Of a stretch of 64,000 nucleotides of DNA, positions 3,533-40,728 are shown in pieces. Positions within the stretch are counted from its first letter, which is position 1, and every line of letters starts with the position of its first letter. The DNA is taken from assembly GCA_035649175.1 (NCBI GenBank), contig DASRKB010000237.1, positions 676 through 64,675 of the forward strand, given 5' to 3'. Position numbers and translations under genes: made by a program. This stretch comes from Burkholderiales bacterium (GTDB lineage Bacteria > Pseudomonadota > Gammaproteobacteria > Burkholderiales > SG8-39). The notes beneath the pieces were generated by a model that saw only the letters and a program-made list of their open reading frames with translations, was not told the origin of the DNA and made no database searches.

Positions 3533-5155
<1,623 letters not shown>

Positions 5156-8302: not shown

Positions 8303-9014
<712 letters not shown>

Positions 9015-9015
<1 letters not shown>

Positions 9016-23383: not shown

Positions 23384-25278
23384 TGGTCCCTCGGTGACTG
23401 TAGCGGTAGGGTTATCGTGAATGCCGAGCCCTTGCCGGGCGCGCTCTCGACGCGGATCGTGCCGCCGTGCAGCTCGACGAAGCGCTTGGTGAGCACGAGG
23501 CCAAGGCCGGTGCCTTCCGCCTTGCGAGTGCTGTCGCGCCCCACCTGCCGGAACTCCTGAAACAGCGCGGCCTGATCCTCGGGCGTCATGCCGGCACCGG
23601 TATCGCGCACCGTGATCTCGGCCGCCTCGTCCCGCAGCCGCGCCGATACGATGACCGTGCCGCCTTCGGGGGTGAACTTCACCGCGTTGGAGAGCAGGTT
23701 CAGCATGATCTGCTTGACCTTGCGCTCGTCGCCGATGACGCTTCCGATGCCCGGCGGGATGTCGATCTGCAGTCGCACGCCATGCCGCTGCGCCCGCTCC
23801 TTGACAAGCGAGGCGGCCCGCTCGATCGCCGTGGCAAGGGCGAACTCCGAGAGATCGAGTTCCATTCGCCCGGCCTCGATCTTGGACAGGTCGAGGACGT
23901 CGTTGATCAGGGAAAGCAGATGCTGTCCGGACTCGAGAATATCCGTCACGTACTCGGCCTGCTTGGCATTGAGCTCGCCGAACATACCCTCCTTAAGGAC
24001 CTCCGAGAACCCGATGATGGCGTTGAGCGGCGTTCTCAGCTCGTGCGACATATTGGCGAGGAACTGGCTCTTCTCTCGGCTTGCCGCCTCAGCCTGCTCC
24101 CGCGCGCGCTGCAGATCGAGCTCGGCGAGCTTGCGACGCGTGACATCGGTGATGGCTCCGATCATCTTGATCGCACGCCCATGCGGATCTCTCAAGGCGA
24201 TGGCGCGGTCGACGATCCACCGGTATCCACCGTCCGTGGCGGCGATGCGGTACTCGTGCTCGAGCCTCGGAGTCAACCGCTTGAAGTGCGCGCCAATCGC
24301 GCGGCGGTAGCCGTCGAGGTCGTCCGGATGCACCAACTCGGTCCAGACCCTGGCGGTCTGCTTCCCGGCAGGCCGGAAGAACTCCCTGGCATTCTCGGTG
24401 ATGAGAAGCTCATCGGTTGCGATGTCCCATTCGTAGATGCCTTCCGTGGCTACGCTCGTCGCGGTCGAATAGCGCTCCTCGCTCTGCCGCAGCGCTTCCT
24501 CGGTCCGCTTGAGCCGGCTGATGTCGCCCGTGGAGCCGATCATGCGCACCGCGCGCCCGGCGGCGTCGCGCTGCGCGATTCCGTGCTGGCGTGCCCAGCG
24601 CCAGCTCCCGTCCTCGGCGCGGTAACGGAACTCGCACTCGAAGCGCTCGGTCCCGCCTTTGAAATGAGCGATCAGTGCGGCGTCATAGCGCGTCCTGTCC
24701 TCGTCATGTATGCGTTGGTGCCAGTCGGCCGCCGTGCGCATATGCTCGGGGGACAGGCCGAGCATATGGATTACGCGCTCGGAGTAGTAGATGCTGTTGT
24801 TGGCAATATCCCAGTCGTAGATGCCCTCGCGCACGGCCTGCAGGGCGAGGTCGTAACGCTCCTCGCTGCGCCGCAGCGCCTCCTCGGTCTTCTTGAACTC
24901 CGTGATGTCGCCGATCGATCCGACCACGCGCGCTGCACGGCCGCGTGCGTCGCGCAAGGCGATGCCGTGCTGCCGGCACCAGCGCCATTCTCCGCTGCGC
25001 GCTCGATAGCGATAATCGCATTCGATGCGCGGCGTTCGCGCCTCGACATGCGCGCGGAACACGTCCATGTAGTGAGCGACATCCTCGGCATGAATGAGAC
25101 TGCGCCAGTCCTTTGCCGTCTGCATGAACGCCCGGTCCACATCCAGGACGTCGTAGACGCGCTCGGAGTAGTAGATGTGGTCCTCTGCCACGTCGTAGTC
25201 GTAGATTGCCTCGTTGATCGCTCGCATGGCGAGCGCATAGCGCTCTTCCGACTCGCGCAGCTGGCTGAGATCGCTCAT
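23380..25278 (-). CDS. cytoplasmic sensor histidine kinase: three tandem PAS domains + HisKA + HATPase_c, 632 aa
   Basis: Track ORF 23380..25278. Three units of about 124 aa each begin SEERY(A/D/S)LA...EGIYDWDI and end GRA.R..GS.GDI(T/S). Then come the H-box [21 protein letters not shown] and the HATPase motifs. Confidence 0.92.
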   Translation of the reverse strand: [632 protein letters not shown]

Positions 25279-28211
25279 GACCTCCCCGTCGGAAAGACCA
25301 CCGTGAAAGTGGAGCCTTTGCCGGGCGAGCTGTCGAGCCGGATGGCGCCGCCGTGCAGCTCGACGAAGCGCTTCGTCAACGCGAGTCCAAGCCCCGTGCC
25401 TTCGGCCTTGCGCTTGGAGTCGCGCCCGACCTGCTTGAACTCCTCGAACACCGACGCCTGGTCCTCGGAGGCAATGCCGATGCCCGTATCCTTCACCGCG
25501 ATCTCCACCTTGTCGGTGTCGAGCCTCGCGGCCACGTCCACCCTTCCGCCATCGGGCGTGAACTTCACGGCGTTGGAGAGCAGGTTGAGCAGGATTTGCT
25601 TGAACTTGCGCTCGTCGGCGCGCAGTTCGCCCAGGCGCGGGTCGACCTCGAGCCCGAGCGCGATGCCGTGGCGCTGCGCACGCTCGCGCACGAGCGTCAT
25701 GGCGTTGGAGAGGGCTGAGGGCAGGTCGAAGTTAGAAAGCTCGAGGTCCATGCGCCCCGCCTCGATCTTCGAGAGGTCGAGGATGTCGTTGATGAGCGAG
25801 AGCAGGTGCTTGCCCGACTCGTGGATGTCCTTGAGATAGTCGAGCTGCTTCTCGTTCACCTCGCCGAACATCCGCTCGATCAGCACCTCCGAGAAGCCGA
25901 TGATGGCGTTGAGCGGCGTCCTCAGCTCGTGCGACATGTTGGCGAGGAAGTCCGACTTGTGCTTGTTCGCCACCTCGAGCTGCGCGCTCTTCTCCTGGAT
26001 CTCGCGGAACAGGCGCACGTTCTCGATGGCAATCACCGCCTGATCGGCGAAAACGCGCACAAGCTCGATCTGCTTCGCTGTGAAGGGCCGGGCCTCACCG
26101 CTGCGGGAGAGCGTGAGCACGCCGATCGGCTCGCCGTCGCGCAGCATCGGCACAGCGAGAATGCTGCGGTAGTTGCCGGCCTGCATGATATCGTGGCGCC
26201 CGTATTGCGGGTCGGCGGCGACGTCGGGAATGTGCACCGTCACTCCGTCGAGCACGGCGCGCCCGGTGGCAGAGGCACGGTCGAGCCTGATCGGCGCGCG
26301 GTCGAACACCCCACGCGTCGCGTCGCCCGGCTGCTGCGCTTCGTCGGCCACGGCGAAGGCCATCGGCACGTACTCGGCCCGCTCGTTGGGCCGGAAGAGG
26401 AAGCCGCGATCGGCCTCGCAGAGCTTGCGCGCCTTGGCGAGCACGATCTCGAGTACGGGCTGCAGGTCGAACGTCGTGCGGCTGATCACTTTCAGGATCT
26501 CGGAGGTCGCGGTCTGCTGCTCGAGCGACTCCTTGGTCTCGTTGAAGAGCCGCACGTTCTCGATGGCGATCACCGCCTGGTCGGCGAAGGTGCGCAGCAG
26601 GGCCATCTGCTTGTCGCTCAGCGGCCCGGGCAGCACACGGCTCACGCTGATGGCGCCGATGGCCGTCCCGCCGCGCAGCATGGGTATGATGGTCATGGCG
26701 CGCGAGCCGCTATCGATGAAGTTCCGAAGCCCCGGCGCGATCGAGGGCTCGTCATGGAGCAGCGCGTCATGCACGTCGATCACGCGGTGGTCGAGGATGG
26801 CAGTCGAGTGCATGTACTCGCGGGTCAGCGGGACGGGAAAGCGCGAGCGTATCGCCTCGGCTTCCGCGGGCTCGCGGGCGGCGACCGCGGCGGCGCGCAC
26901 GTGCGCGCCCTCGGGGAGAGCGACCATCACGGTCGCCTCTGGGAAAAGCTTCAGCCCGCTCTGCACGATGGCCTCGAACACCGGCTGCGTGTCGGTGGTC
27001 GAGCTGCTGATGACCTTGAGGATCTCCGCCGTCGCCGTCTGCTGCTCGAGCGCCTCCTGCAGCTCCGCGGTGCGCGCCTCGACCTTCCTCTCCAGGCCGG
27101 CGTAGGACTCCCGCAGCCGGGCGCTCATCTGGTTGAACTCGTCGGCAAGCGCCTCGAGCTCGTCGCCGGTCTTCACCTCGATTTTCTGCTCGAGCTCGCC
27201 CGCCCCGATGCGCGCGGCGCCGTCGCGCAGGGTGCTGATCGGGCGCGCCATGCTGCGCGCGAGCCACATGGCCGCGAAAGCCGAGAGGAGAAGGCCGGCG
27301 AAGAGGAGGAGGATCGTGCGCAGGATCGCGGCGTCGAGGGACGCGAAGACTTCGGAGACCGGCTGCTCGGCGAAGACTCTCCACCCCAGCGGGTCGATCG
27401 GCGCATAGGCCGTCAGGACCCGGCCCCCGCCGAGGTCCTGGGAAAGCATGGCGGGCGAGCCGCCGGGATCGGGGGCGAGCGAGCGCTTCACGTGCTCGAG
27501 GCTCGAGAGGTCGGTCTTGCGCAGCACGAGCCCGATGTCGGGATCGGCCACGAGGTGGCCGGTCGAGTCAACCACGTAGGCCTTGCCCTTCTCGCCGATG
27601 CGAATGCGGGTCAGGACGTCCCAGATGAACTTGAGGTTGATCTCGCCCACGGCGACCGGGCCGCCTGGGGTGGAGCGGGTGGCCATGACGATGTAGGGCT
27701 CGGTGTCCTTGCGGAAATAGACCTCCCCGAACCACGTCTGCCCGGGTTTCGCGTCCCGGAAAGCCGGCTCCTGCGAGCGATCGCGGCCGCTGTCCACGAC
27801 GTTCATCGAGAGCCGCGACACGAACAGCTGCTCGCGCCCCGCGCGGTCGATGTAGTAGATGTCCGTGACGGCCTCGGCGATACGCAGGAGCTTCTCGAAC
27901 TCGGTCTTGCGCTGCGCCGCGCCCTCGGCCGCGAGCTGGTGAAGCGCCGCGAACTCGAGCTGCCGGTCGATCTGGCGCACGAACTGCTCGATGCGCGCGG
28001 CCGCCGCGCCGGCTTTCTCGCGCTGCAGGCTGGCGAGCGCGGCTTTATTTTCCTCGTAGGAAAAGTACAGGCCGATGCCGCCCGAGATCACGAGCGTACC
28101 GCAGACCAGCGCGAGGATGAGGAGGAGGTACTTGCGGAACAACCGCCCGCGGTGCAGTCGCCGCGCCGCGGCGTGCTCCCCAATCGCGAGATCCGTCGGC
28201 TTCAGGCGCAT
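25275..28211 (-). CDS. membrane sensor histidine kinase: TM - periplasmic Cache-like domain - TM - HAMP - 2 GAF - HisKA - HATPase_c, 978 aa
   Basis: Track ORF 25275..28211. TM1 is [23 protein letters not shown], followed by a periplasmic region of about 250 aa. TM2 is [19 protein letters not shown]. HAMP is [39 protein letters not shown]. Two GAF units carry the same linkers as the 10-GAF kinase. The transmitter is nearly identical to that of 15963..21956. Confidence 0.9.
   Translation of the reverse strand: [978 protein letters not shown]
25891..26009 (-). repeat. 119-nt segment identical to 16573..16691
   Basis: See the partner feature. It encodes the end of the last signalling helix and the H-box. 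Confidence 0.8.
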
Positions 28212-28221
28212 CTCCTCGCGG

Positions 28222-29193
28222 CTACTCTACCACCCGGTCGGCGCGCAGCAGCACGGCCTGCGGAATGGAGATGCGCAGCGCCTTCGCGGTGCGCATGTTG
28301 ATCACGAGCTCGAGCTGCTGGGGCGAGGTGATGGGCAGTTCCGCCGGCGAGGCGCCCGCCAGGATGCGGTCGACATAGCGGGCGGCGCCGCGGAAGCTCG
28401 CCGCCAGGTCCGGCCCATAGGTCGCGAGCGCGCCGGGCGGTGCGAACTCCCCGAGCGGCGAGAGCGTCGGGACGCCGGCGGAGAAGGCCGCCTGCACGAG
28501 CTCCTCGCGCAGCCCGAAGAGCATCGCGTCGGCCGATACGACCAGCGCGTCGGCCTGCAGCGATGCGAGCCTCTCCGGCAGCGCGTCGACGTCCCAGCGG
28601 GCCCGCAGCACCACGGGCACGAGCTCCAGCCCCATCGAGCGCGCGGCGCGCGTGGCGGCCGCTTGGTAGGACGCCGCGGCGGTCCGGTCCGGGTTGACGG
28701 CGAACGCGATGCGCCGCGCCTTGGGCATGAGCACGTGCAAAACCTCGATGACCCGGGCGTGCTGACCCTCGCCCAGGCTTGCCATGCCGGTGACATTGCC
28801 GCCCGGCCGTGCGAGGGTCCGCGCAAGGCCGTCGCCCACCGGATCGATGCCGGACACGATGACGATCGGAATCGTGTCGGTCCTCGCCCTCACGAACCCG
28901 GCCGTGTCCGCGGTGTCCGCGACGATGACGGCGCAGCCCAGCGCGATCAGCTCGTCGGCGATGAAAGGGATGCGGGCCCGATTGCGCTCGTAGTAGCGGG
29001 CGACGAGCGTGTAATGGCGGCCTTCCTCGTAGCCGAGCTCGAGCAAGCCCTCGACGAACTCGCGCCCGAAGCGGTCATCAGTCACGTGGACGAATCCGAC
29101 GCGGTAGGGTCCGCGCGCTTGCTGGGCACGCGCGACCGGCGGCATGGGCGCGGCGACCAGCGCCAGCAGGGCGACGAAGGCCCGCCGCTTCAT
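28222..29193 (-). CDS. periplasmic substrate-binding protein, ABC_sub_bind (PF04392-like) family, 323 aa
   Basis: Track ORF 28222..29193. Signal peptide MKRRAFVALLALVAAPMPPVARA, then VGFVH...NVTGM...ELPI..PQQLELVINMRTAKALRISIPQAVLLRADRVVE, the characteristic C-terminus of this family. No cognate permease or ATPase is adjacent. Confidence 0.8.
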   Translation of the reverse strand: MKRRAFVALLALVAAPMPPVARAQQARGPYRVGFVHVTDDRFGREFVEGLLELGYEEGRHYTLVARYYERNRARIPFIADELIALGCAVIVADTADTAGFVRARTDTIPIVIVSGIDPVGDGLARTLARPGGNVTGMASLGEGQHARVIEVLHVLMPKARRIAFAVNPDRTAAASYQAAATRAARSMGLELVPVVLRARWDVDALPERLASLQADALVVSADAMLFGLREELVQAAFSAGVPTLSPLGEFAPPGALATYGPDLAASFRGAARYVDRILAGASPAELPITSPQQLELVINMRTAKALRISIPQAVLLRADRVVE

Positions 29194-30143
29194 TCGATGA
29201 CGCGGTCGGCGCGCAGGATCAGCGCCGGCGGAATCGCGATGCCGAGGGCGCGTGCAGTGCGCAGGTTGATGGCAAGCTCGAACTTGGTCGGACGCTCGAA
29301 GGGCAGCTCCGAGACCTTGGCGCCCTTCAGGAGGCGGTCCACGTACTGCGCGACACGTCGCCAGATCGCGGCATGGTCGGCGAAGTAGGAGAGCAGCGCG
29401 CCGGCACGGACCTCGGCGCTCGTGAGCATCATCGCCGGGATGCGCCGCTCGATCGAAAGGCGCACTGTGACGTCGGACAACGTTAATGCCTGCCCGGCAA
29501 GCCGCAGTACCGCATCGGCGCGCCAGGCGGCCGCCTCCGCAAAGGCATCTTGGATGTCCTGCTCGGTGCGCGCCGGAAAGTAGCGCATCTCCACTTGGAG
29601 GACGGCCCCCGCCTGCTCCAGGTCGCGTATCTGCGGCTTGACGATCGGCTCGTCGGGGTGAATCAGGCCCGCGACACGCCGAGCTACAGGTAGCGCCTGC
29701 TTCAGTACCTCCAGGCGCTTGGCGACGATCTCGCCCGCCATATTGGTGACGCCGGTGATGTTGCCTTCCGGGCGGGAGATGTTTCGCACGCCGACCAGGC
29801 CTGGCTCGGAGACGACGCCGACGACGATGGGGACCACCTTGGTGGCCGCGGCGGCGGCGCGTCCACCCGGCGTGTTCGCTGCGACGAGAACGTCTACGCC
29901 GGAGTCCACCAGACCCTTGGCGAGCCCCGGCAGGGCCGAGAGCTTTCCGGCGGCTGACCGGACTTCCAGCTCGGCTTGGACGAGGCGGCTCAGCTCGTCA
30001 CGGAAGGCGGCTTCGTCCCACTGTACCTCGGCAGGGACAAGCACACCGACCCGCGGCCGGCGCACCTGCGCCCGTACCGCTACGGGAGCGAGCGCGAGCC
30101 CGCCGAGAATCCTCAGAATCCGCCGCCTGCCCCCCCGCATCAC
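29190..30143 (-). CDS. periplasmic substrate-binding protein, ABC_sub_bind (PF04392-like) family, paralog, about 317 aa
   Basis: Track ORF 29190..30143, starting at GTG 30143 or ATG 30140. It has a signal peptide, then RVGVLVP...NITGVTN...[40 protein letters not shown]. ATGA overlap with the downstream paralog. Confidence 0.8.
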   Translation of the reverse strand: [317 protein letters not shown]

Positions 30144-30405: not shown

Positions 30406-31041
30406 ATGAAGCCTCGCACGACAGAGGTTCTCCCGCCGGCGCTGATCGAGAAGATTGGCGCGGTCGCCACCACGCGCGTGTACGCCAAGAACGCGATCAT
30501 CGTCTCCGAGGGCGACGAGACCGACTCGCTCTACCTGCTCCTTTCCGGGCGGGCGAAGGTGTTCGTCTCCGACGAGAACGGTCGCGAGGTCCAGCTCAAC
30601 CAGATCGGGCCGGGCGAGTACTTCGGCGAGGTCACGCTCGACGGTGGGCCGCGCTCGGCTTCCATCATGGCGCTCGAGGAGTGCCGCTGTGCGGTGGTGA
30701 AGCACGGGGAGCTGACCGCGTTCCTCGAGCGCCATCCGGAGTTCGCGCAGCACCTCGTGCGCAAGCTCGCGCACCGGGTGCGCGAGCTCACCGAAAGCGT
30801 GCGCAGCCTGGCGCTGATGGACGTCTACGGGCGCGTCGCGCGGCTGCTGCTCGAGCTCGCGGAGGAGCAGGACGGGATGATGGTGGTGCAGGAGTCGCTC
30901 ACGCACCGGGACATCGCCGCCCGGGTGGGCTGCTCGCGGGAGATGATCAGCCGGATCTTTTCCGACCTCACCGACGGCGGCTACGTGCGAAAGGAGGCGG
31001 GCCACCTGGTGATCGTCCGCAAGCCGCCGCCCCGCTGGTAG
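30406..31041 (+). CDS. Crp/Fnr-family transcriptional regulator (cNMP-binding domain + HTH), 211 aa
   Basis: C-terminal part of track ORF 29719..31041, from the ATG at 30406. The CNB pocket is FGEVTLDGGPRSASIMALEE (Arg83-Ser84, equivalent to E. coli CRP Arg82-Ser83). The HTH is THRDIAARVGCSREMISRIFSDLTDGGYV. Confidence 0.9.
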   Translation: MKPRTTEVLPPALIEKIGAVATTRVYAKNAIIVSEGDETDSLYLLLSGRAKVFVSDENGREVQLNQIGPGEYFGEVTLDGGPRSASIMALEECRCAVVKHGELTAFLERHPEFAQHLVRKLAHRVRELTESVRSLALMDVYGRVARLLLELAEEQDGMMVVQESLTHRDIAARVGCSREMISRIFSDLTDGGYVRKEAGHLVIVRKPPPRW

Positions 31042-31053
31042 CAGAGAGAAGAT

Positions 31054-32268
31054 CTAACGTGAAGGCTGGGCGATCGGGGCCTGATCTCGAAGGAGCGGAC
31101 GTTCGTCGATCGGGAGGTGAATCAGCGCGGCGATGACCCCGAGCGCGGCGGCGACCATCCACGCGAGGTCGTAGGACCCGGTGCGGTCGAAGAGCCAGCC
31201 GCCCGCCCAGGCGCCGAGGAAGCTGCCGAACTGGTGGCTGAAGAACACGAAGCCCGAGAGCATGGCGAGGTGGCGCACGCCGAAGATCTGCGCCACCACC
31301 GCGTTGGTGAGCGGCACCGTGCCGAGCCACAGGAACCCCATCAGAACGCCGAATGCCATCGCGCTGACCGTACTGAGCGGCAGGGCCATCAGCATCACGA
31401 TCACCACCGCACGCGAGAAGTAAAGGAGCGACAGCAGGTTCTTCTTCAGGTAGCGGCTGCCGAGCCATCCGGCGGCGAAGCTGCCGAAGACGTTGAACAG
31501 GCCGATGAGCGCGAGCGCCATCATGCCGTCGCGCGCGGTGAGGCCGCGGTCCATGAAGTACGAGGGCAGGTGCGAGCCAATGAAGACGACCTGGAAGCCG
31601 CACACGAAGTAGCCCGCGACAAGGAGCCAGAAGCTGCGCTGTGCGCGCGCCTCGGCGATCGCCTCGCCGACCGTCTGCTTGTGCGCCTGCGGAGCGGCGT
31701 GGGGACTCTCCATGAGCGCCGCGGAAAGCGGCGCCATGACGAAGGCCGCGCCGGCCAGCACCACCAGCGCGAAGGCCCAACCGCTCGCCGAGATCAGGGT
31801 CTGCGCGCCGGGAAGGAGCGCGAACTGGCCGAAGGAGGCGACTGCGCCGGCGACGCCGAGCGCCATGGTGCGCTTCTCCGGAGGCGTGTGCCGCCCGATG
31901 ACGCCGTAGACGATGCTGAACGTCGTGCCGGAGAGCCCGAGACCCACGAGCAGGCCCGCGGAGAAGTAGAGCTCGCCCGGCGTGCCCGCCGTGGACATGA
32001 GCCAGAGGCCCGCACCATAGAGGAGCGCACCTCCGAGCACGACGCGCCCGGCGCCGAAGCGGTCGGCGATCATCCCGGAGAAGGGCTGCGCGAACCCCCA
32101 GATCAGGTTCTGGGCCGCAATCGCCAACGAAAACACCTCGCGGCCCCACCCGCGGTCCACGGACATCGGCTGCAGGAAAAGCCCGAAGCCGTGACGGATG
32201 CCCAGAGCGAAGAACAGCACGAGGCTCCCGAAGACGAGCACCGTCCCTGGGGTCAGGCGAAGCTTCAT
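31054..32268 (-). CDS. MFS transporter (oxalate/formate-antiporter-like monocarboxylate type), 404 aa
   Basis: C-terminal part of track ORF 31054..32418, from the ATG at 32268 (MKLRLTPGTVLVFGSLVLFFALGIRHGFGLFLQPMS...). It has 12 predicted hydrophobic spans. ATGA overlap with the upstream cyclase stop. Confidence 0.85.
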   Translation of the reverse strand: MKLRLTPGTVLVFGSLVLFFALGIRHGFGLFLQPMSVDRGWGREVFSLAIAAQNLIWGFAQPFSGMIADRFGAGRVVLGGALLYGAGLWLMSTAGTPGELYFSAGLLVGLGLSGTTFSIVYGVIGRHTPPEKRTMALGVAGAVASFGQFALLPGAQTLISASGWAFALVVLAGAAFVMAPLSAALMESPHAAPQAHKQTVGEAIAEARAQRSFWLLVAGYFVCGFQVVFIGSHLPSYFMDRGLTARDGMMALALIGLFNVFGSFAAGWLGSRYLKKNLLSLLYFSRAVVIVMLMALPLSTVSAMAFGVLMGFLWLGTVPLTNAVVAQIFGVRHLAMLSGFVFFSHQFGSFLGAWAGGWLFDRTGSYDLAWMVAAALGVIAALIHLPIDERPLLRDQAPIAQPSR

Positions 32269-33350
32269 TTCGTAATGGACTTGAGGCGGAAGGCCGGCAC
32301 GGGATGCTTGAAGCCGCGCAGCTCGAGCGGGCCCACCAGCTCGGTCACCGTCATGTGCGCGACGTCGTGCTCGGTTTGCGCGTCCAGGAGAATCTCGCCT
32401 GCGTTCGCCGCGCCACACAGGCGCGCCGCGAGGTTGGGCACGTTGCCGATCGCGGCATATTCCCAGCGTTGCTCGAAGCCGATGATCCCGAGGGTTGCCT
32501 CGCCTTGCGCGATACCGATCCCCAGGCCGACCTCGTGCCCGAGCCTTTCCCAGGCCGCGGAGATCGGCGTGAAGGCCTTCTGCAGGGCGAGCGCCATGCG
32601 CACCGCGCGCGCGGCCGGCTTCTCGACCGGCAACGGGTCATTGAAGAAGATCATGACGCCGTCCCCGGCGAAGTGCTCGAGCGTGCCGCCGAACTCGTCG
32701 ACCGTTCGCCCGAGCGTGGCGTGGTAGGAGCGCAAGAGATCCATCACCTCGTCCGGGTCGGCGCGGTCGGTGAAAGCGGTGAATCCGCGCAGGTCGAGGA
32801 ATACCGCCGTGATCTCGCGCCGGTGGGGCTCGAGCATCCCCTCACCGCCCGCGACGATCGCCTCGGCCACCGGGCGGGAGAAGAAGCGCTTGAGCCGCCC
32901 CAGGCGCTCGAGCTGCGCCACCTGCTCGGCCACGCGCTCCTCGAGCCTCGCGTTCAGCACCTTGAGCTCGTCCTGAAGCGACTTCACGCGCAGGAGCGCC
33001 TTCACGCGAGCGAAGAGCTCCTCCCAGTTGACCGGCTTGGAGATGAAGTCGTCCGCGCCCACTTCCAGCCCCTTGATGCGCTCCGCTTGGGCTTCGAGCG
33101 AGGTCACCAGCACCACCGGAAGAAGCGCCGTCGCGGCGTCCGCGCGCAGCCGCCGGCACAACTCGTAGCCGTCGATGCCCGGCATCAAGATGTCGGAGAC
33201 CACCAGGTCCGGCCGCGCGACGCTCACGCGCTCGAGCGCGTGCGCGCCATCCTGCGCGGTGAGCACGTCGTACCCGCGTGCCTTCAGCACGCCGGCCATC
33301 ATCTCCACGCTGGCGCGCTGGTCGTCGACGACCAAGATGCGGGCAGTCAC
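32265..33350 (-). CDS. response regulator receiver fused to class III nucleotidyl cyclase (paralog of 21984..23012), 361 aa
   Basis: C-terminal part of track ORF 32265..33674, from the GTG at 33350 (VTARILVVDDQRASV...PDLVVSDILMPGIDGYE...). CHD is HRREITAVFLDLRGFTAFTD...GTLEHFAGDGVMIFF...EYAAIGNVPNLAARL. GTGA overlap with the ADH stop. Its coiled-coil linker is about 19 aa longer than in the paralog. Confidence 0.88.
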   Translation of the reverse strand: MTARILVVDDQRASVEMMAGVLKARGYDVLTAQDGAHALERVSVARPDLVVSDILMPGIDGYELCRRLRADAATALLPVVLVTSLEAQAERIKGLEVGADDFISKPVNWEELFARVKALLRVKSLQDELKVLNARLEERVAEQVAQLERLGRLKRFFSRPVAEAIVAGGEGMLEPHRREITAVFLDLRGFTAFTDRADPDEVMDLLRSYHATLGRTVDEFGGTLEHFAGDGVMIFFNDPLPVEKPAARAVRMALALQKAFTPISAAWERLGHEVGLGIGIAQGEATLGIIGFEQRWEYAAIGNVPNLAARLCGAANAGEILLDAQTEHDVAHMTVTELVGPLELRGFKHPVPAFRLKSITK

Positions 33351-34453
33351 GGGAAAACGATCACCCCGCGAGCATTCTTCCCCGATTGCATGTCGGCGAA
33401 CGCCTGCGGCGCATCCTCGATCGAGTAGCGCCGCGTGATGAGCTCCTCGAGCTTGAGGCTTCCCGCCTGGTAGAGCGAGAGCATCCGCGGGAAGTCGACG
33501 CTGGGCACGCAGGAGCCGAAGTAGCTCCCGGTGAGCGTCTTCTCCTCGAAGACCAGCGTCATGCTGCGCACGGCGGTGCTCTCGGTGGGCTTCGCCACGC
33601 CCACCACCACCGCGGCACCGCCGCGGCGGATCGCCCGGTAGGCCGCACCGGCGAGCTCGCCCGAGCCCACGCACTCGAAAGCGTAGTCGGGTCCGCCCCC
33701 AGTGAGCTTCTTCAGGGGTTTGACGATGTCTTCACCCTGCTTGACGATGAGGACATCCGTCGCCCCGAAGCTCATGGCCATCTGGAGCTTCGCCTCGAGC
33801 GTGTCGATCGCGATGATCTGCCTCGCGCCTGCGATGCGCGCGCCCTGGATCACCGAGAGACCCACGCCCCCGCAGCCAAGCACAGCGACGCTCGAGCCCG
33901 GCTCGATCCTCGCGGTGTTGAACACCGCCCCGACCCCGGTCGTGACCGCGCAGCCGACGAGCGCGCCGCACTCCATGGGGATCTTGGGATCGATCTTGAT
34001 GAGATTCTCGGCCGACACCGTCGCGTACTCGGCCATCGCCCCGCAGCCGGAGAAGATGCCGAGGGGCTTGCCAGCGGCGTCATGCACGCGCGGCGTGCCT
34101 TCCAGCGGCGTCGTGAGGGCCTTCCCCTGCTCGAGGCACAGCACCGGGCGGCCCGCCACGCAGAAGCGGCATTTACCACACATGTAGATGAAGGAGAAGA
34201 CGACGTGGTCGCCCTTGGCGAGCCCCGCCACGGCCTCGCCGACCTCCTCCACCACCCCTGCGGCCTCGTGGCCGAGCACCAGCGGCAGCGGCAGCGCGAT
34301 GGTGCCGTTCGCGGCGGACAGGTCGGAGTGACACACGCCGCAGGCGCCGATCTTGACCGTCACCTCGCCTCGCTTCGGCGGGTCGACGACGACGGTTTCG
34401 ACGGCGAACTTGTTCAGCTCGCGGCAGAGGACCGCTCGGGCTTTGCGGGACAT
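33347..34453 (-). CDS. zinc-dependent alcohol dehydrogenase (class III-like MDR), 368 aa
   Basis: Track ORF 33347..34474. GACGVCHSDL, GHEAAGVVEEVG, structural-zinc motif CGKCRFCVAGRPVLC, Rossmann VAVLGCGGVGLSV. I prefer the ATG at 34453 (MSRKARAVLCRE...) because it matches the usual family N-terminus. The GTG at 34474 is the alternative. Confidence 0.88.
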   Translation of the reverse strand: MSRKARAVLCRELNKFAVETVVVDPPKRGEVTVKIGACGVCHSDLSAANGTIALPLPLVLGHEAAGVVEEVGEAVAGLAKGDHVVFSFIYMCGKCRFCVAGRPVLCLEQGKALTTPLEGTPRVHDAAGKPLGIFSGCGAMAEYATVSAENLIKIDPKIPMECGALVGCAVTTGVGAVFNTARIEPGSSVAVLGCGGVGLSVIQGARIAGARQIIAIDTLEAKLQMAMSFGATDVLIVKQGEDIVKPLKKLTGGGPDYAFECVGSGELAGAAYRAIRRGGAAVVVGVAKPTESTAVRSMTLVFEEKTLTGSYFGSCVPSVDFPRMLSLYQAGSLKLEELITRRYSIEDAPQAFADMQSGKNARGVIVFP

Positions 34454-34500
34454 TTTTATCAGTATATCCGGCACTAGCCCTTTGGTAGCATCCAGGAACC

Positions 34501-35925
34501 ATGCTGATCCGAGACAAGCTCTTCATCGACGGCCAATGGGTCGGCCCTTCAAGCAGCGAAACGATCGATGTGCACGACGCCGGCAACGGCAAGGTCATGG
34601 GACGCATCCCCGCCGGCGCCGAGAAGGACGCCGAGGCTGCGGTCCGGGCCGCCCGGTCGGCGCTCGAGACATGGAAGGACATTCCCGTCGAAAAGCGGGC
34701 CGAATACCTCGACAAGATCTCCTCCGGCCTGAAGGCGCGCGCCGACGAGATCGCGCGCACCATCGCGCGGGAAGTCGGCATGCCGCTCAAGATGGCCTCG
34801 CGCATCCAGGCCGGGCTTCCGATTGCGAACTTCGCGAACTACGCGAAGCTCGTGAAGGAGTTCAAGTTCGAGGAGAAGGTTGGAAATTCCCTCGTAGTGC
34901 GCGAGCCGGTGGGCGTGGTGCTCGCCATCACGCCCTGGAACTACCCCCTGCACCAGATCGCCCTGAAGGTGGCGCCGGCGCTCGCGGCCGGCTGCAGCGT
35001 GGTGCTCAAGCCCTCGGAGGTCGCGCCGTTCAACGCCTTCATCCTCGCCGAGGTGATCGAGGCGGCCGGGCTGCCCAGGGGCGTCTTCAACCTCGTCACG
35101 GGCACCGGTCCCGCCGTGGGCGAGGCGCTAGTAAAGCATCCCGACGTCGACATGATCTCCTTCACCGGCTCGACGCGCGCGGGCAAGCGGATCTCCGAGC
35201 TCGCCGCGCAGGGCGTCAAGCGGGTAGCGCTCGAGCTGGGTGGCAAGAGCGCCTCGTTGATCCTGGACGACGCGGACCTCGCGCAGGCGGTGAAGGGCAC
35301 GGTGAATGGTTGCTACCTGAACTCCGGCCAGACGTGCACCGCGCTCACCAGGATGCTGGTGCCCGAGAGCCTCTATCCGGAGGCGGCAAGGCTCGCGGGC
35401 GAGGCTGCGAAGAGTTTTGCCGTGGGTGATCCATTGAATGAGAACTCCAGGCTGGGCCCGCTCAGCTCCCAGGCGCAGCTCGAGCGCGTACGCGGATACA
35501 TCAAGAAGGGAATCGCCGAGGGCGCCGAGCTCGTCGCGGGCGGCGCCGAGCCGCCCGAAGGCGTGCCTGCCGGCGGCTACTACGTGCGCCCGACGGTGTT
35601 CGGCAAGGTGAAGAACAGCATGACCATCGCGCAGGAGGAGATTTTCGGGCCGGTGCTCTCCATCATCCCCTACAAGGACGAGGAAGATGCGGTGCGCATC
35701 GCGAACGACACGGTGTACGGGCTTGCCGGCGCAGTGTGGTCCAAGGACGACGCGCGCGCGCAGCGCGTGGCGCGCCGCATGCGCGCGGGGCAAGTCGACG
35801 TGAACGGCGGCGCGTTCAACATGAACGCCCCCTTCGGCGGCTTCAAGCAATCCGGCCACGGCCGCGAGGCCGGCGTGTACGGGCTCGAAGAATTCCTGGA
35901 ATATAAAGCCCTGCAACTAAAGTGA
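34501..35925 (+). CDS. NAD(P)-dependent aldehyde dehydrogenase, 474 aa
   Basis: Track ORF 34501..35925. [18 protein letters not shown], catalytic Cys region [19 protein letters not shown]. An AGGAA RBS is present. Confidence 0.93.
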
Positions 35926-37577
35926 GATTGCTGCGCCTCGCCACCGGACTGGTGGTCGCGGCGTTCGTCGTCGGGCACTTCCTCAACCACGCGCTCGGCG
36001 TGGTCTCGATCGAGGCAATGAACGGCATGCGCTCCGCCCTGGCCGCGGGGTGGCGCAGCCTGCCGGGCACGATCCTGCTGTACGGCTCGCTCGCCACGCA
36101 TTTCGCGCTCGCGCTCGTATCGCTCTACCGGCGCAGCACGCTGCGCATGCCGGCCTGGGAGGCCGGGCAGCTGCTGCTCGGGCTCGCGATCCCGCCGATG
36201 CTCATCGGCCACGTCGTCGGTACGCGGCTCAGCTGGACGCTCTACGGCCACCACATCGACTACGAGCGCATCGTGGGGCTGCTCTGGTCGGACTCGACCG
36301 CTGCGGCGCGGCAATCGGCGCTCCTCCTGGTCGTGTGGATGCATCTTTCGTTCGGCGTGCACTACTGGCTGCGGGTAAAGGCCTGGTACCCCACGGTGCA
36401 GCCGGTGCTCTTCGCCGCGGCGCTTCTCATCCCCGCCATCGCGCTCGCCGGCTTCGCCGCGGCAGGTGCGAGCCTGTGGCCCGGCATCGAGGCGGTGGGC
36501 GGCATGCAGAAGTACAACCTCGACCTCGCCGGGATGACCGACGCGCAGCGCGCGCGCCTCGTTCACTGGCGCGAGGGGATGACGTGGGGCTTCTGGCTGC
36601 TCCTCGGGGCGACGCTGCTCGCGCGCTGGCTGCGCCAGCGCATCGGCGGGACCTACCAGGTGCGCCACGCCTCCGGCCGCGTCATTACCGCGCCCGTCGG
36701 CCGCACCATCCTCGAGGCGATCCGCGACGCCGGCATCCCCCACGCCTCGGTCTGCGGCGGCCGCGCGCGCTGCACCACCTGCCGCGTGCGCGTCGGCGAA
36801 GGGCTCGCCGCGCTGCCGCCGCCGCGGCCGGCGGAGGCGCGCGCACTCGGGCGCATCGAGGCGCCGCCGAACGTGCGCCTCGCCTGCCAGTGCCGGCCGC
36901 GCACCCACGTCGCCGTCACCCCCCTTCTGCCCGCCGGCGCGGACGCGGCGCTCGCGCGCAACCCCCGCAGCCCGCGGGGGCAGGAGCGGCGCATCGTCGC
37001 CATGTTCGTCGACCTGCGCGAGTCGACCGAGCTCGCCGAGGGACGCCTGCCCTACGACGTGGTCTTCCTCATGAACCAGTTCTTCGCCGAGATGTACCAG
37101 GCGCTGCGGGCGACCAATGGCTACTACGCGCAGTTCCGCGGCGACGGCCTGCTCGCGCTCTATGGCCTCGGAGCCGAGCCCGCGCAGGCCTGCCGGGACG
37201 CCATCGCCGGCGCGGCCGAGATGCAGCGACGGCTCGAGGCGCTCAACGCGAGCCTCGCCGCCGACCTCGCGCGCCCCCTGCGCATCGGCATCGGCGTCCA
37301 CGTCGGCCTCGCCATCGTCGGCACGATGGGCCCGCCGGACGCGCCGATCCACTCCGCGATCGGCGACAACATCAACATCGCGGCGCGCCTGGAAGGCATG
37401 ACGAAGGCGTACGGCTGCGTGCTGGTAATTTCCGAGGACACGCTGACGGAGGCGGGGGTGGAACCGCGCGGCGCGACTTTGCACCGCGTGCGCGTGCGCG
37501 GCAGGAACGAGCGGCTCAGCGTGTACGCCGTCCAGGATCCGCGCATGCTCACGTCGGTCCGGCAAATCGGGGTCTGA
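35922..37577 (+). CDS. membrane protein - [2Fe-2S] ferredoxin domain - class III nucleotidyl cyclase fusion, 551 aa
   Basis: Track ORF 35922..37577, with a GTG start and a GTGA overlap with the ALDH stop. The N-terminal 240 aa or so has 5-6 TM segments with several His (H19, H23, H60, H97, H110/111, H141, H147). The Fer2 domain reads [13 protein letters not shown]...LACQC. The CHD reads [13 protein letters not shown]...[14 protein letters not shown]...[16 protein letters not shown]. Confidence 0.88.
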
Positions 37578-37584
37578 CCCCGAT
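37566..37584. repeat. REP-like palindrome ATCGGGGTC-T-GACCCCGAT between convergent genes (possible bidirectional terminator)
   Basis: Perfect 9-bp arms. The internal TGA (37575-37577) is the stop codon of the cyclase gene. The convergent gene stops at 37588-37590. Confidence 0.7.
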
Positions 37585-37587
37585 CTC

Positions 37588-38037
37588 CTACTTTCCCGAC
37601 AGGGTGCGCGAGAGCTGGTTGGTCGTATTGGCGAGGCGAGCGGCGAGCACGCGGATCAGCTCGAGCGCGGCGTCGGGGTTCTCGCGAATCACCTGGGAGA
37701 AAAGATCCTTGGAGATTCTCAGGGTCTCGAGCGCGGTGAGCGCCTTGGCGGTGGCGGTGCGCGGCACCTCGCCGAAGATGGCGATCTCGCCGATGATGTC
37801 GTTGCGGCCGAGCTTGTTGACCACCAGTGGGCCGCCGGGGGTGGGCACGCTGATCTCCACTTCGCCGTCGATCACGATGTAAGCGGCATCGCCCATGTCC
37901 CCGGCGTTGAACATCACCTGCCCGGGGGCGTAGGAGAGCCGCTCGGCGGAGAACACCAGCAGCTTCTGCATCGCCGGCTGGATCTTGCTGAAGATCGGGA
38001 ACTGGCGGATCAGCTCGACTTCCTGCTCCAGGCTCAT
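37588..38037 (-). CDS. stand-alone cyclic nucleotide-binding domain protein, 149 aa
   Basis: C-terminal part of track ORF 37588..38151, from the ATG at 38037 (MSLEQEVELIRQFPIFSKI...). The CNB core is GDAAYIVIDGEVEI...IIGEIAIFGEVPRTATAKAL (Arg93-Thr94 phosphate-binding cassette). ATGA overlap with the ABC gene stop. Confidence 0.88.
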   Translation of the reverse strand: MSLEQEVELIRQFPIFSKIQPAMQKLLVFSAERLSYAPGQVMFNAGDMGDAAYIVIDGEVEISVPTPGGPLVVNKLGRNDIIGEIAIFGEVPRTATAKALTALETLRISKDLFSQVIRENPDAALELIRVLAARLANTTNQLSRTLSGK

Positions 38038-40688
38038 GCGGCAGTCCTCCTCTTCAGCTCCGTGAACTTGCCCTGCTCCGCGAGGCGCCCACGTTCCATC
38101 ACCAGCACCATGTCGAAGCGCTCGGCGTACTCCTCGCGCGAGAGCGCCCATACCACCCCGGCGCCCCTGCGCTCGGCGAGCACGTTGTCGACCACGCGGC
38201 CCTGCGAGGCCGGGTCGAGCAGCGCGCCCGCGTGGTCCAGGACGAGGAGCACCGGGCGCTTGAGCAATGCGCGCACCAGCGCGACCTTCTGCCGGTCGGA
38301 CGGCGCCAGCCGCGCCCCGCCGACGCCTACGTGATAGCCCAGTCCGTTCCTCACCACCAGCGGCCGCAGGCCAAGCTCGTCCAGCAGCTCCCGCATCAGC
38401 GTCGTGATCCGCTGCACGGCGCCCGCCTGGCCGGTCACGATCTTGCCGAACAGGATGTTGTCCTGCAGGGTCGCGGCCCTGTTGTAGCGCGTCGGGTCGA
38501 AAAACTCCACCGCGTCGCGCATCCCGGCAGGCAGGTGACGCGCGAAGTGGTGGCGGGCCTCGACCACGCGAGCCTCGAAGCTCTCGTCGATGAGCCCGAG
38601 GCGGTGGCGCGCGGCGATGAGGCGGAAGGGCAGCGCGAGCAGCAGGCGCCGTTCGGCCTCCTCGATGCCACGCAGGCCGGCCTCGGTGACGCGCTTCAGG
38701 ATAGCCTCGAACTGCGGCAGGTCCTCTTGCCGGATGAAGCTGTACTGCGCGAAGAACTCGTGGCCGGGTGGCAGGCCGCTGAAGAGCTCGACCATGGTCT
38801 CGGCCACCTTGTGCCCGGTGCGCAGCACGAGGTCGTGCAACCCCGTGTCGTGCAGCACCTGGCGCACGTAGGCGTTGCCGGCGAGGTTCTCGATGTCGAA
38901 GGTGCGTCCGACCGGGGTGCCGAACAGCAGGTTCTCGGCGAGCGTCGCGTTGCGGTTGTAGTGCGCCGGGTCGAAGCGCTCGACCCAGTCCTCGATGCTC
39001 TGGGAAGCAAGGCGCTCGCGCATCTTCTGCCGCGCGGAAAGCACCTTCCCGGAGAATTGGTCGGAGTCTGCGGTGCTGCGCAAGCCGAGCTCGAACACAG
39101 TCTCCTCGAGCTCCACCACGCGCAGCAGCTCGACGATACGCGCCTCCATCTCATCCGTGCTGCCCACCCCGGCCGCGGCGTAGTCGATCCACTCGGCGTT
39201 GATGTCGAGCGGCGAGTTGCCGGTGCGCAGCGCCTCGCGCGCCTCTGCCTCGCGCGCCCTGCGCCTCGCGGCGTCGTGCTCGGGCTCGCGGATCGGCCGG
39301 TGCTTCAGGCCGTAAAGGATGTTCGAGCGCACGTCGGCGGGAAAGAGGTATGCGGGCGTGCCGACGTAGCCGATGGCGCGTCCGGTCACCGCCTCGGGGG
39401 CGCGGGTGATGTCGATGCCGCCCATCTCGATGGCGCCGCTCGTCGGCGGGTAGAGTCGCGCCACGAGCTGCGCGAGCTCGGTGGCGCCCGCGCCACTCTG
39501 CCGCGAAACGATGGCGACGTGCGAGCCAAGATCCGCCTCGAAGGAGACGTTGTCCACCACCCGGCTGCCCGCCTCGTCGACGAAGGTGAGGCCCGTGGCC
39601 CGCATCCGCCCGGCCCGGGGTAGCGGCGGATCCTCGGCGGGCGCCTGCAGCTCCGCCGGGGCGACGTCCTCCGCGGTGAACTGCTCCACCACCTGGCCGT
39701 ACTTGATCTGCACGTCGAGGCGCTGCTGGTCCCAGTCGATCAGCTCCTTCACCGGCGTGGGCAGGTCCTTGTAGGCGGCGATCACCGCCACGAGCGCGCC
39801 GATGTCGAGCCGGCCGACGATCACCAGGTAGCCGCCCAGCGCATAGAACAGGAAGGGCGTGACCTGCGATAGGAAGTTGTTGAGGAACTTGATGAGGAAT
39901 TTGCGCTGGTAGAACTCGAAGCGGATGCGGAAGATGTGCCCCAGCCGCGCGGAGATCTCGGCGCGCTCGTAGTTGGAGGTGTCGTTGGCGTGGATCTCGG
40001 CGATGCCGTCGACCGACTCGGCGATGCGCCCGGCGAGCGCCCGCGCGGTGAGCTGGCGCTCGCGGCCGAGCACGAGCAGGCGCCGGCGCAGCCGCGGGAT
40101 CAGGTACGCCTGCACGCCCACCACCCCCAAGGCGGTCAGGCCGAGCGCGACGTGCTGGTACAGGATGAAGACCATCGCGGTGAGCGCCTGCCCGCCGAGG
40201 AAGAGCGGCGTGATGAGCGCCTCCCCGACGAACCCGCCGAGCGGCTCGACCTCGTCCTTGATCATGGTGGCCATTTCGGCGGCCTTCACGCGCCGGAAGC
40301 GCTGCAGCGGGAAGCGCAGGATGTAGTCGAACAGCGCATAGCGCAGCCGCCGCAGCATGCGCTCGCCCATCCAGCCCTTCATGGTGTTGATCTGGAACTT
40401 GAGCCAACCGTTCAGCACGATCAGGCCGAGGAACACCGCGCTCAGCGCGAAGAGATAGGGAATCCGCTCGAGCGCCAGCCCCAGGAAAGGGACCTTGGCG
40501 TCGGGGCTCGGGAACGCGTCGCCCTGGATCGCCTGGTTGATGATGGTCTTGGGTAGGTCGAGGGAAAGGTAATAGACGACCATGGTCGCGAGCACCAGCG
40601 GCACGATGAGCAGCTGGTCGCGCTTGCTGTAACGCAGGATGAAACCGAAAAGGCTTCGATCCACCTTGGATCCCCGGGGAACGCACAT
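38034..40688 (-). CDS. atypical ABC exporter-like protein: 6-TM ABC membrane domain + degenerate, internally duplicated nucleotide-binding domain, about 884 aa
   Basis: Track ORF 38034..40796, with the start placed at ATG 40688 (MCVPRGSKVDRSLFGFILRYSKRDQ...). A GTG 8 codons downstream is also possible. The TMD resembles type I ABC exporters. In the NBD, the Walker A position reads SRQSGAGAT (nt 39480-39506), the signature position reads LAPSD (38295-38309), and Walker B reads LLVLDH (38232-38249). An insert of about 270 aa (38502-39305) carries a second degenerate helical-subdomain copy. Confidence 0.8.
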   Translation of the reverse strand: MCVPRGSKVDRSLFGFILRYSKRDQLLIVPLVLATMVVYYLSLDLPKTIINQAIQGDAFPSPDAKVPFLGLALERIPYLFALSAVFLGLIVLNGWLKFQINTMKGWMGERMLRRLRYALFDYILRFPLQRFRRVKAAEMATMIKDEVEPLGGFVGEALITPLFLGGQALTAMVFILYQHVALGLTALGVVGVQAYLIPRLRRRLLVLGRERQLTARALAGRIAESVDGIAEIHANDTSNYERAEISARLGHIFRIRFEFYQRKFLIKFLNNFLSQVTPFLFYALGGYLVIVGRLDIGALVAVIAAYKDLPTPVKELIDWDQQRLDVQIKYGQVVEQFTAEDVAPAELQAPAEDPPLPRAGRMRATGLTFVDEAGSRVVDNVSFEADLGSHVAIVSRQSGAGATELAQLVARLYPPTSGAIEMGGIDITRAPEAVTGRAIGYVGTPAYLFPADVRSNILYGLKHRPIREPEHDAARRRAREAEAREALRTGNSPLDINAEWIDYAAAGVGSTDEMEARIVELLRVVELEETVFELGLRSTADSDQFSGKVLSARQKMRERLASQSIEDWVERFDPAHYNRNATLAENLLFGTPVGRTFDIENLAGNAYVRQVLHDTGLHDLVLRTGHKVAETMVELFSGLPPGHEFFAQYSFIRQEDLPQFEAILKRVTEAGLRGIEEAERRLLLALPFRLIAARHRLGLIDESFEARVVEARHHFARHLPAGMRDAVEFFDPTRYNRAATLQDNILFGKIVTGQAGAVQRITTLMRELLDELGLRPLVVRNGLGYHVGVGGARLAPSDRQKVALVRALLKRPVLLVLDHAGALLDPASQGRVVDNVLAERRGAGVVWALSREEYAERFDMVLVMERGRLAEQGKFTELKRRTAA

Positions 40689-40728
40689 CTTACAGTCCCT
40701 GACGGGATTTGCCGCTATAGTTGGACGC

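Follow-up and report, generated by a model that had tools for sequence, protein, structure and literature searches.

Class III nucleotide cyclases under response-regulator control are known, e.g., cyanobacterial CyaC and Stigmatella CyaB, as are active class III cyclases that carry Gln/Asn or Asn/His instead of Lys/Asp, e.g., Rv0386 and Rv1900c of Mycobacterium tuberculosis. The present analysis concerns a 64,000-nucleotide stretch of DNA (hereafter the window) from a Burkholderiales bacterium (assembly GCA_035649175.1, contig DASRKB010000237.1), and within it a pair of divergent gene clusters led by an alcohol dehydrogenase (ADH) gene and an aldehyde dehydrogenase (ALDH) gene. Each dehydrogenase gene is followed by a class III cyclase gene, and each cluster, or arm, is faced by a gene for a cyclic nucleotide monophosphate (cNMP) receptor. 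The cyclase of the minus-strand ADH arm has a response-regulator receiver (REC) domain and is referred to here as the REC-cyclase, while that of the plus-strand ALDH arm is referred to as the CyaC-like cyclase, after its resemblance to CyaC of Sinorhizobium meliloti.

CyaC of S. meliloti (SMc01818) is described, in a paper citing Wissig 2019, as a redox-regulated class IIIb adenylate cyclase with two heme B groups that reacts to ubiquinone's redox state (PMC10463352). The class IIIb cyclases designated “cluster 1” (Beltz 2016) combine a ferredoxin domain with a six-transmembrane (6TM) anchor, which resembles the cytochrome b of fumarate reductase/succinate dehydrogenase and contains four heme-ligating His residues (PMC4821796). 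In S. meliloti, Clr participates with CyaD1/D2/K or with CyaC in local circuits of the CRP/cAMP type (PMC10463352).

The CyaC-like cyclase of the window shares with S. meliloti CyaC its three-part architecture, its length, four membrane His residues, and four Fe-S Cys residues. Its full-length identity to Sinorhizobium/Ensifer homologues is 41-43%, and its catalytic residues have the same spacing as theirs (X, +74, +7, +4). The two proteins differ in that the window protein has Gln404/Ser478 where CyaC has Lys410/Thr484. They also differ in genomic partners: the window gene follows ALDH and faces a cNMP-binding gene, whereas S. meliloti cyaC follows the TetR-type gene cycR and signals through Clr. 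Similarly, the REC-cyclase resembles other REC-controlled class III cyclases in its receiver domain, helical linker, and catalytic domain, with both metal-binding Asp residues, Asn, and Arg in place, but departs from them in having a His/Ala pair rather than Lys/Asp(Thr) or Glu/Cys, and in being encoded directly after a Zn-dependent ADH in nearly all loci that were compared. Rv0386 and Rv1900c provide a precedent for both the Gln/Ser and the His/Ala pairs, while their regulatory domains and genomic contexts differ. As in the Clr circuits of S. meliloti, there are many cyclases per genome and the gene neighbourhood suggests pairings of cyclases with CRP-like receptors; in contrast, the receptor genes of the window are convergent with dehydrogenase-cyclase operons. 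All of the parts are of known kinds, namely REC-cyclases, CyaC-type cyclases, CRP-like factors, and cNMP-binding proteins. What is new is a conserved ADH-REC-cyclase operon with a facing CRP-like gene, a symmetric two-arm layout in one genus, and conserved non-canonical specificity pairs. Searches of the literature returned no account of a class III cyclase gene in an ADH or ALDH operon, none of a REC-cyclase directly after a Zn-dependent ADH, and no characterisation of the Gln variant of the CyaC family.

Each arm of the locus consists of a dehydrogenase gene, a cyclase gene, and a facing gene for a cNMP receptor. The two adjacent receptor genes, which were missed by an earlier note on this DNA, are the strongest clue to function. 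We judge it reasonably probable that the locus is a cNMP signalling island built around the divergent ADH/ALDH pair, in which each dehydrogenase has its own cyclase and its own facing receptor. The features of the island, with the evidence for each, are as follows:

30406..31041, plus strand: CRP/FNR-family cNMP-binding transcription factor of 211 amino acids (the CRP-like factor), convergent with the ADH arm (Pfam, G+C at third codon positions [GC3], orthologues).
31054..32268, minus strand: major facilitator superfamily (MFS) transporter, last gene of the minus arm (Pfam MFS_1, 3.1e-37).
32265..33350, minus strand: REC-cyclase, a response-regulator class III cyclase with REC domain, helical linker, and cyclase domain (Pfam Response_reg, 2.5e-28; Guanylate_cyc, 3.1e-17).
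33347..34453, minus strand: Zn-dependent medium-chain ADH, liver/class III-like, first gene of the minus arm (Pfam ADH_N and ADH_zinc_N).
34454..34500, no strand assigned: divergent control region of 47 bp (sequence and an alignment of 17 orthologous intergenic regions).
34501..35925, plus strand: NAD(P)-dependent ALDH, first gene of the plus arm (Pfam Aldedh, 4.1e-167).
35922..37577, plus strand: CyaC-type cyclase with a 6TM diheme-b-like anchor, a [2Fe-2S] domain, and a class III domain (Pfam Fer2, 9e-11; Guanylate_cyc, 4.4e-11).
37568..37582, no strand assigned: palindrome CGGGGTCTGACCCCG between the convergent cyclase and cNMP-binding genes, containing the TGA stop of the cyclase (sequence).
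37588..38037, minus strand: stand-alone cNMP-binding protein, encoded convergently to the plus arm (Pfam cNMP_binding, 5.8e-20).
38034..40688, minus strand: ABC-exporter-like gene, with an ATGA overlap with the next gene, that of the cNMP-binding protein.

The conservation of the ADH-REC-cyclase pair was assessed in 28 orthologous loci, comprising 17 loci of the genus (16 from other species of the genus plus L084, from a public collection) and 11 loci from eight other genera, the latter having been picked by a family-wide search from genera with REC-cyclase orthologues at 66-80% identity. ADH lies directly upstream of the REC-cyclase in 26 of the 28 loci, representing at least seven genera. 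Within the genus the order is found in 17/17 loci, where the 16 junctions range from a 4-nucleotide (nt) overlap to a gap of ~16 nt, except that one of them measures 11-26 nt, depending on the choice of start; the gap in the genus-level locus L084 is ~20 nt. ADH adjoins the REC-cyclase in nine of the 11 loci from other genera (six genera), with gaps of 0-19 nt when the longest open reading frame (ORF) is taken and no more than 99 nt when the start is set by alignment. The two exceptions have, in one case, a 1.6-kb insertion and, in the other, no ADH within 8 kb. Homologues of the REC-cyclase at 62% identity or less form a paralogue group that is not found beside ADH. The surroundings of the pair are more variable: the CRP-like gene lies from 13 nt to 2.3 kb away while the ADH-REC-cyclase junction holds, and ALDH lies 26-112 nt from ADH in most loci and ~1-4.1 kb from it in nine. 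Because the adjacency has been kept across genera, it is, to judge from these comparisons, a selected linkage that goes beyond chance. The counterargument raised in the earlier note, that the arrangement might be unique to this genome, fails for this pair. It applies halfway to the ALDH-cyclase pair (see below) and fully to the third gene of the minus arm, since no MFS homologue was found in 36 related loci at a threshold of E<=1e-5, and among the relatives sampled the transporter occurs in this genome only.

Residues required for phosphorylation and catalysis are likewise conserved in the REC-cyclase. The translation shows the DD, D53, T, and K motifs of a receiver domain whose acidic pocket is intact, and the phospho-acceptor Asp53, the metal-binding Asp186 and Asp230, Asn306, and Arg310 are kept in all 27 related orthologous loci that were compared. 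The base-specifying positions are occupied by His226 and Ala299 in the same 27 loci, while the paralogue group represented in the window by REC-cyclase-2 (described below) has Arg/Ala. The best match of solved structure is the catalytic domain of Pseudomonas aeruginosa CyaB (PDB 3r5g, 4.5e-30), in which Lys takes the first base-specifying position. The ADH has the GroES-like and Rossmann domains of its class; its translation contains the ligands of the catalytic and structural Zn atoms and matches class I/III ADHs in the PDB at 1e-60 to 1e-78. The nearest NCBIfam models (NDMA-dependent ADH and class III) all scored below their cutoffs and none was reached at the equivalog level. The ALDH translation contains the catalytic motifs ELGGKS and GQTC, and it too reached no NCBIfam equivalog cutoff. 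By sequence comparison, both dehydrogenases are ordinary members of their superfamilies. The MFS protein is closest to transporters of the monocarboxylate and oxalate/formate types (NCBIfam SfMCT lactate transporter, 2.7e-38, under the cutoff), and the proposal that it exports the acid product of the pathway lacks comparative backing. MFS homologues at 41-52% identity were also observed in three marine Rhodospirillales metagenome-assembled genomes (MAGs; L092, L094, L097), convergent with and 0.1-2 kb after distant CyaC-type cyclases, which may be a coincidence.

The receptor gene facing the ADH arm encodes a protein with Pfam matches to cNMP_binding (7.6e-24), HTH_Crp_2 (9.4e-14), and Crp (1.3e-6) and with an intact phosphate-binding cassette (FGE...RSA). 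A distance of 13 nt separates the end of this gene from the MFS stop codon, and the gene is convergent with the minus arm. An ORF of 335 amino acids on the opposite strand (29998-31005, minus) was rejected as a gene; its Arg/His-rich translation and wrong GC3 mark it as an antisense shadow of the CRP-like gene. Orthologues of the CRP-like factor (66-78% identity) are convergent to the REC-cyclase or to ADH in 12 relatives from four genera, and in 10 of these 12 the gene stands beside the REC-cyclase, including seven relatives within the genus and two other genera. In two loci without the REC-cyclase (L076, L077), the CRP-like gene is convergent directly beside ADH, at a distance of 13-17 nt.

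The second receptor gene begins 10 nt after the CyaC-like gene and is convergent with it. Its product has an intact GE...RTA cassette, and GC3 favours the ATG at 38037 as its start. Orthologues at 77-89% identity follow the CyaC-like gene at 6-50 nt, or at up to 1.7 kb, in 10 loci of the genus and at 42 nt in L084, and the cNMP-binding gene is kept there in the genus together with the ABC-exporter-like gene. A broader association, in which Gln-type CyaC cyclases would generally stand beside cNMP-binding genes, was considered and rejected, as such a gene was found within 4 kb in 5/44 loci of the Gln type and 1/30 of the Lys type. Further along the window, a protein of the metallo-beta-lactamase fold is encoded at 40639-41556 (plus strand); its only Pfam matches were Lactamase_B_2 and Lactamase_B, and no phosphodiesterase-specific family was matched.

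The CyaC-like cyclase consists of an anchor (residues 1-245), a [2Fe-2S] domain (~250-330), and a cyclase domain (~355-545). His19, His60, His97, and His141 are invariant in alignments of 13 and 28 sequences (28-84% identity), as are Cys278, Cys284, Cys287, and Cys322. The anchor matched no Pfam family, even at E = 0.01. Its AlphaFold model has a mean confidence (pLDDT) of 92.5, and the top three Foldseek matches in the PDB are all cytochrome b subunits: 9lay_C (TM-score 0.54, probability 1.00) and Wolinella FrdC in 2bs4_C and 1e7p_C. The best fold matches thus come from Chloroflexus succinate dehydrogenase and Wolinella fumarate reductase; the FrdC matches have TM-scores of ~0.5, with 1qlb_C ranking fifth, and the E-values of the anchor matches are weak (0.09-2). 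By sequence and predicted fold, the protein belongs to the CyaC family and is predicted to bind heme B and a [2Fe-2S] cluster. Asn485, Arg489, and the metal-binding Asp residues are kept in the catalytic domain. Gln404 and Ser478 occupy the positions homologous to Lys410 and Thr484 of CyaC, so the Lys/Thr signature that specifies ATP is absent. This is a common condition in the family: among 80 family loci, 44 are of the Gln type and 30 of the Lys type.

The pairing of this cyclase with ALDH is less deeply conserved than the pairing in the minus arm. An orthologue is present in ~13/24 genomes of the genus, and none was found outside the genus among the loci examined. The cyclase overlaps the ALDH stop codon by 4 nt in six relatives and is separated from it by ~90 nt in one and ~0.6 kb in another. 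In two further species (L043, L047), a gene of the UDP-glucose/GDP-mannose dehydrogenase family has been inserted between ALDH and the cyclase, overlapping the ALDH stop by ATGA (8253-9557, plus strand, in L043). In L049 (G015:C24), ALDH has been lost and the CyaC-like gene, in two matching pieces and apparently frameshifted, is divergent from ADH at 112 nt, which by its sequence is a plus arm in decay, as occurs in some species. Among 78 more distant loci of the family (41-60% identity, many phyla), there was no ALDH or ADH within 4 kb of the cyclase. Synteny of the ALDH and Fer2-cyclase genes, proposed in the earlier note as a check, therefore recurs in genus relatives, but the pair is broken or absent in many species and is found at none of the distant loci.

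Several other arrangements were observed around this arm and its homologues. In the closest relative (G011), a 4-kb pair of genes for DUF2339 and DUF3999 membrane proteins lies between ALDH and ADH (L041:5552-9636), and the cNMP-binding and CyaC-like genes are separated by a HipA-like kinase gene (L041). ORFs that seemed to be coupled upstream of CyaC paralogues with 45% identity in relatives were rejected as spurious high-GC frames; the real neighbours of these paralogues are a methyl-accepting chemotaxis protein (MCP) and TctC, not ALDH. A cyclase-free protein of 360 amino acids, made up of a diheme-type anchor and a [2Fe-2S] domain, is encoded in G011, G021, and G020 (L057:3093-4175, minus; L058:2825-3907, plus; L059:2374-3456, plus). 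Its gene follows rplY-pth-ychF and shares 16 nt with the start of a gene for a 600-amino acid protein with MscS-type mechanosensitive-channel domains; here a redox module may be joined to a channel rather than to a cyclase. No such stand-alone gene was found in the window's own genome.

The junctions of both arms are tight. The TGA stop of ADH overlaps the GTG start of the REC-cyclase (GTGA, 33347-33350), the REC-cyclase overlaps the MFS gene (ATGA, 32265-32268), and the ALDH stop overlaps the GTG start of the CyaC-like gene (GTGA, 35922-35925). Both cyclase starts agree with the N-termini of orthologues. ORFs, junction sequences, and Pfam placed the five genes, their domains, and these three overlaps exactly where the earlier note had them. 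A consensus scan of 30900-38300 gave no sigma-70 matches and no terminators at gene junctions. The sole terminator-like hairpin in that interval lies inside the MFS gene, and the number of such hairpins is below chance expectation. The palindrome CGGGGTCTGACCCCG is probably a bidirectional terminator or an element like a repetitive extragenic palindrome (REP). The junctions leave no room for promoters or terminators, which supports an operon-like organization of both arms, and we infer that the genes within each arm are co-transcribed. The coupling had been called stoichiometric, which overstates the case. No recognisable Shine-Dalgarno sequence precedes any of the three overlapped starts, so translation there would depend on re-initiation, and re-initiation usually gives smaller amounts of the downstream protein. 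Moreover, in a crude whole-genome gene model based on GC3, an in-frame start stood at the 4-nt overlap position in 360/1705 same-strand neighbour pairs (~21%). Because such overlaps are common in the genome, they do not by themselves go beyond chance.

Downstream of the minus arm, on the same strand, lies a series of genes that probably supplies the input to the REC-cyclase. These features, all identified with Pfam, are:

21984..30143, minus strand: the probable input module as a whole.
29190-30143 and 28222-29193, minus strand: two PF04392 binding proteins.
25275-28211, minus strand: dCache-HAMP-GAF histidine kinase.
23380-25278, minus strand: PAS histidine kinase.
21984-23012, minus strand: REC-cyclase-2, a 63% identical paralogue of the ADH-linked REC-cyclase with the Arg/Ala specificity pair.

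The Cache-HAMP-GAF and PAS kinases are thus encoded 4-9 kb downstream of the REC-cyclase. In L074-L081, a dCache-HAMP-GAF kinase gene is followed ~380-920 nt later by an Arg/Ala REC-cyclase gene, and in the present genome the PAS kinase has been inserted between the two; in one relative, a GAF kinase gene directly follows the REC-cyclase. The pair formed by the Cache kinase and REC-cyclase-2 occurs in at least six genera and stands beside the CRP-like gene and ADH in two loci. Because this pair is so widespread and has been found in that position, the ADH-linked REC-cyclase looks, on this comparative evidence, as if it arose by duplication of REC-cyclase-2, with the copy placed between ADH and the CRP-like gene.

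The region between the two arms measures 47 bp, or 26 bp if ADH starts at the upstream GTG at 34474, in agreement with the 26-47 bp given in the earlier note; homologues favour the ATG at 34453. In the 17 aligned intergenic regions, the motif AGTATA(G/T)C is conserved and reads TATACT on the ADH strand. The motif ends 7 nt before the ADH ATG in the window and 6-7 nt before it in the genus, a position that suggests a leaderless ADH mRNA in the genus; other genera have a longer ADH leader with a GGAGA box. A TAAAAT box faces ALDH in relatives and is not obvious in the window itself. From their sequences alone, the conserved motifs look like back-to-back -10 boxes that would lack good -35 elements.

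These features bear on the rival explanation that survives best, a local autoregulatory loop. In such a loop, the kinase would sense the substrate, the REC-cyclase would make cNMP, and the CRP-like factor with bound cNMP would activate the divergent ADH/ALDH promoters. Since the cyclase would be co-transcribed with ADH, the result would be positive feedback, with the cyclase controlling the pathway rather than reporting on it. Regulators are commonly encoded beside their own catabolic operons, and the link of the CRP-like gene to ADH persists where the REC-cyclase is missing (L076 and L077). Weak or absent -35 elements, with only short conserved -10-like boxes, would fit dependence on an activator, but the operator that such an activator would need was not found. 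A search for palindromes (5-N4/6/8-5) within 150 nt on either side of the ADH/ALDH starts in 17 loci returned only GC-rich coding repeats and no conserved site of the CRP/FNR type, and an intergenic region of 26-84 nt offers little operator space. We regard the loop as a possibility to be taken seriously, but one that is less probable than otherwise.

A second rival holds that there is no functional link at all: in a compact genome rich in cyclases, cyclase genes settle at the ends of operons and the neighbouring enzyme is incidental. The source assembly (4.3 Mb, 260 contigs, 99.9% complete; ~68% G+C in the window) contains 31 class III cyclase domains (PF00211), 21 cNMP-binding domains, and 14 GGDEF domains. 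The close homologues of the window carry Burkholderiales or Betaproteobacteria MAG labels, and near-identical DNA was found only in metagenome DNA runs from soil, sediment, and straw, mainly soil. In a survey of cyclase neighbours, for which gene calls were crude and ~24 of the 31 cyclases were evaluable, ~8/24 trail an enzyme gene, a proportion close to that made up by enzyme genes in any genome. Other cyclases (contigs C64, C105, C2, C259, C93, and C56; L163-L174) directly follow genes for an alpha/beta hydrolase, DUF4442, and an AlaX-like protein, each with a 4-nt overlap, for an FAD oxidoreductase and a member of the phosphoenolpyruvate (PEP)-mutase family, each at 22 nt, and for an acyl-CoA dehydrogenase at 2 nt. 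A CRP-like factor precedes one cyclase and an Hpt protein precedes another. A cyclase placed after an enzyme gene is therefore not in itself unusual in this organism, contrary to what had been supposed. The third instance of the theme proposed for the window is real as an arrangement (2425-5155, minus), with the GGDEF gene (2425-3531) starting 1 nt after an AMP-binding acyl-CoA ligase gene, and with a branched-chain-type ABC binding protein and permease encoded upstream, but the theme is not statistically remarkable. For this reason, the argument for function must rest on conservation.

On that ground the two arms part company. The absence of a functional link is consistent with the restriction of the ALDH-CyaC-like pairing to one genus, with the 78 other CyaC-family loci that have no ALDH or ADH nearby, with an MFS gene unique to this genome, and with the ~21% of same-strand neighbour pairs that could overlap by 4 nt. 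It does not account for the retention of ADH-REC-cyclase in 26 of 28 loci despite identity down to 66% and reshuffled surroundings, or for cNMP receptors conserved on both sides. Incidental placement suits the MFS gene and the young pairing of the plus arm, not the ADH-cyclase-CRP-like core, and for the locus as a whole we consider it unlikely. Finally, the idea that ADH, and perhaps ALDH, is a trigger enzyme, binding its co-translated cyclase and altering its activity by substrate turnover so that flux is sensed, would suit the tight conserved ADH-REC-cyclase coupling and the fact that the products of overlapping genes tend to interact, but with a REC domain already providing a conventional input and up to 99 nt possibly separating the two genes in some genera, it is very improbable.

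The cNMP signalling island remains the preferred reading. Within it, we infer the nucleotide made, its targets, the kinase partner, and the redox control, and the circuit would operate as follows. Transcription of each dehydrogenase operon would set the amount of its cyclase, which would be translated by re-initiation at the overlapped stop and start codons and probably be made in smaller amounts than the dehydrogenase. The activity of each cyclase would be set separately from its amount. For the REC-cyclase, the input would be phosphorylation, most likely by the Cache/GAF kinase together with the two binding proteins encoded downstream. For the CyaC-like cyclase, it would be the quinone pool's redox state, to which NADH from ADH and ALDH would contribute. 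The CRP-like factor and the cNMP-binding protein encoded alongside would sense the cNMP products, and the output would combine the information that the alcohol/aldehyde pathway is expressed with the presence of an external ligand or with the respiratory chain's redox state. The earlier note had proposed that an alcohol-to-acid pathway is reported through cNMP by cyclases coupled to two successive enzymes, and that the MFS protein could export the acid product. The ADH-REC-cyclase part of that interpretation stands, being operon-like and conserved, while the ALDH-cyclase part applies at the level of one genus, the transporter is unique, and the stoichiometry was overstated.

Several points weigh against the signalling island. 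Tight junctions, and cyclases trailing enzyme genes, are both common in this genome. No conserved operator of the CRP type was found within the ADH/ALDH control region or its surroundings. The pairing in the plus arm is young and unstable and is confined to one genus, with an insertion in two species, loss of ALDH in one, and no cyclase orthologue found in about half of the genus genomes. In addition, the canonical base-specifying Lys is absent from both cyclases (His/Ala and Gln/Ser), so that their activity and product are predictions.

The last point also admits a bolder extension of the model. The presence of 31 cyclase and 21 cNMP-binding domains in one genome makes private pairings of cyclases with receptors plausible, and the locus might accordingly hold two private channels: the His/Ala REC-cyclase with the CRP-like factor (RSA cassette), and the Gln/Ser CyaC-type cyclase with the cNMP-binding and ABC-like proteins (RTA cassette), with at least one of the cyclase products being something other than cAMP. 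The Gln/Ser pair resembles the Glu/Cys pair of guanylate cyclases, so the Gln clade of CyaC-type enzymes (44/80 loci) could be quinone-redox guanylate cyclases that feed a receptor of the cGMP type. We put this forward as speculation with only a slim chance of being right. If true, it would account for 31 cyclases working without cross-talk, and bacterial cGMP signalling would be tied to respiratory state and alcohol/aldehyde oxidation.

How a single diffusible messenger carries many separate signals is an unsolved problem in bacteria with many cyclases. The locus described here is a natural test case that has been kept across genera, with a cyclase in an operon with a catabolic enzyme and a cNMP receptor beside it, and it places the uncharacterised Gln-type branch of the redox-sensing CyaC family beside an NADH-producing enzyme and a second receptor. 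Since the organism is uncultured, its proteins would need heterologous expression. If the model holds, the dosage of each cyclase would be tied to expression of the pathway and its activity to an independent signal, which would provide a simple genetic way of building local cNMP circuits with coincidence detection.

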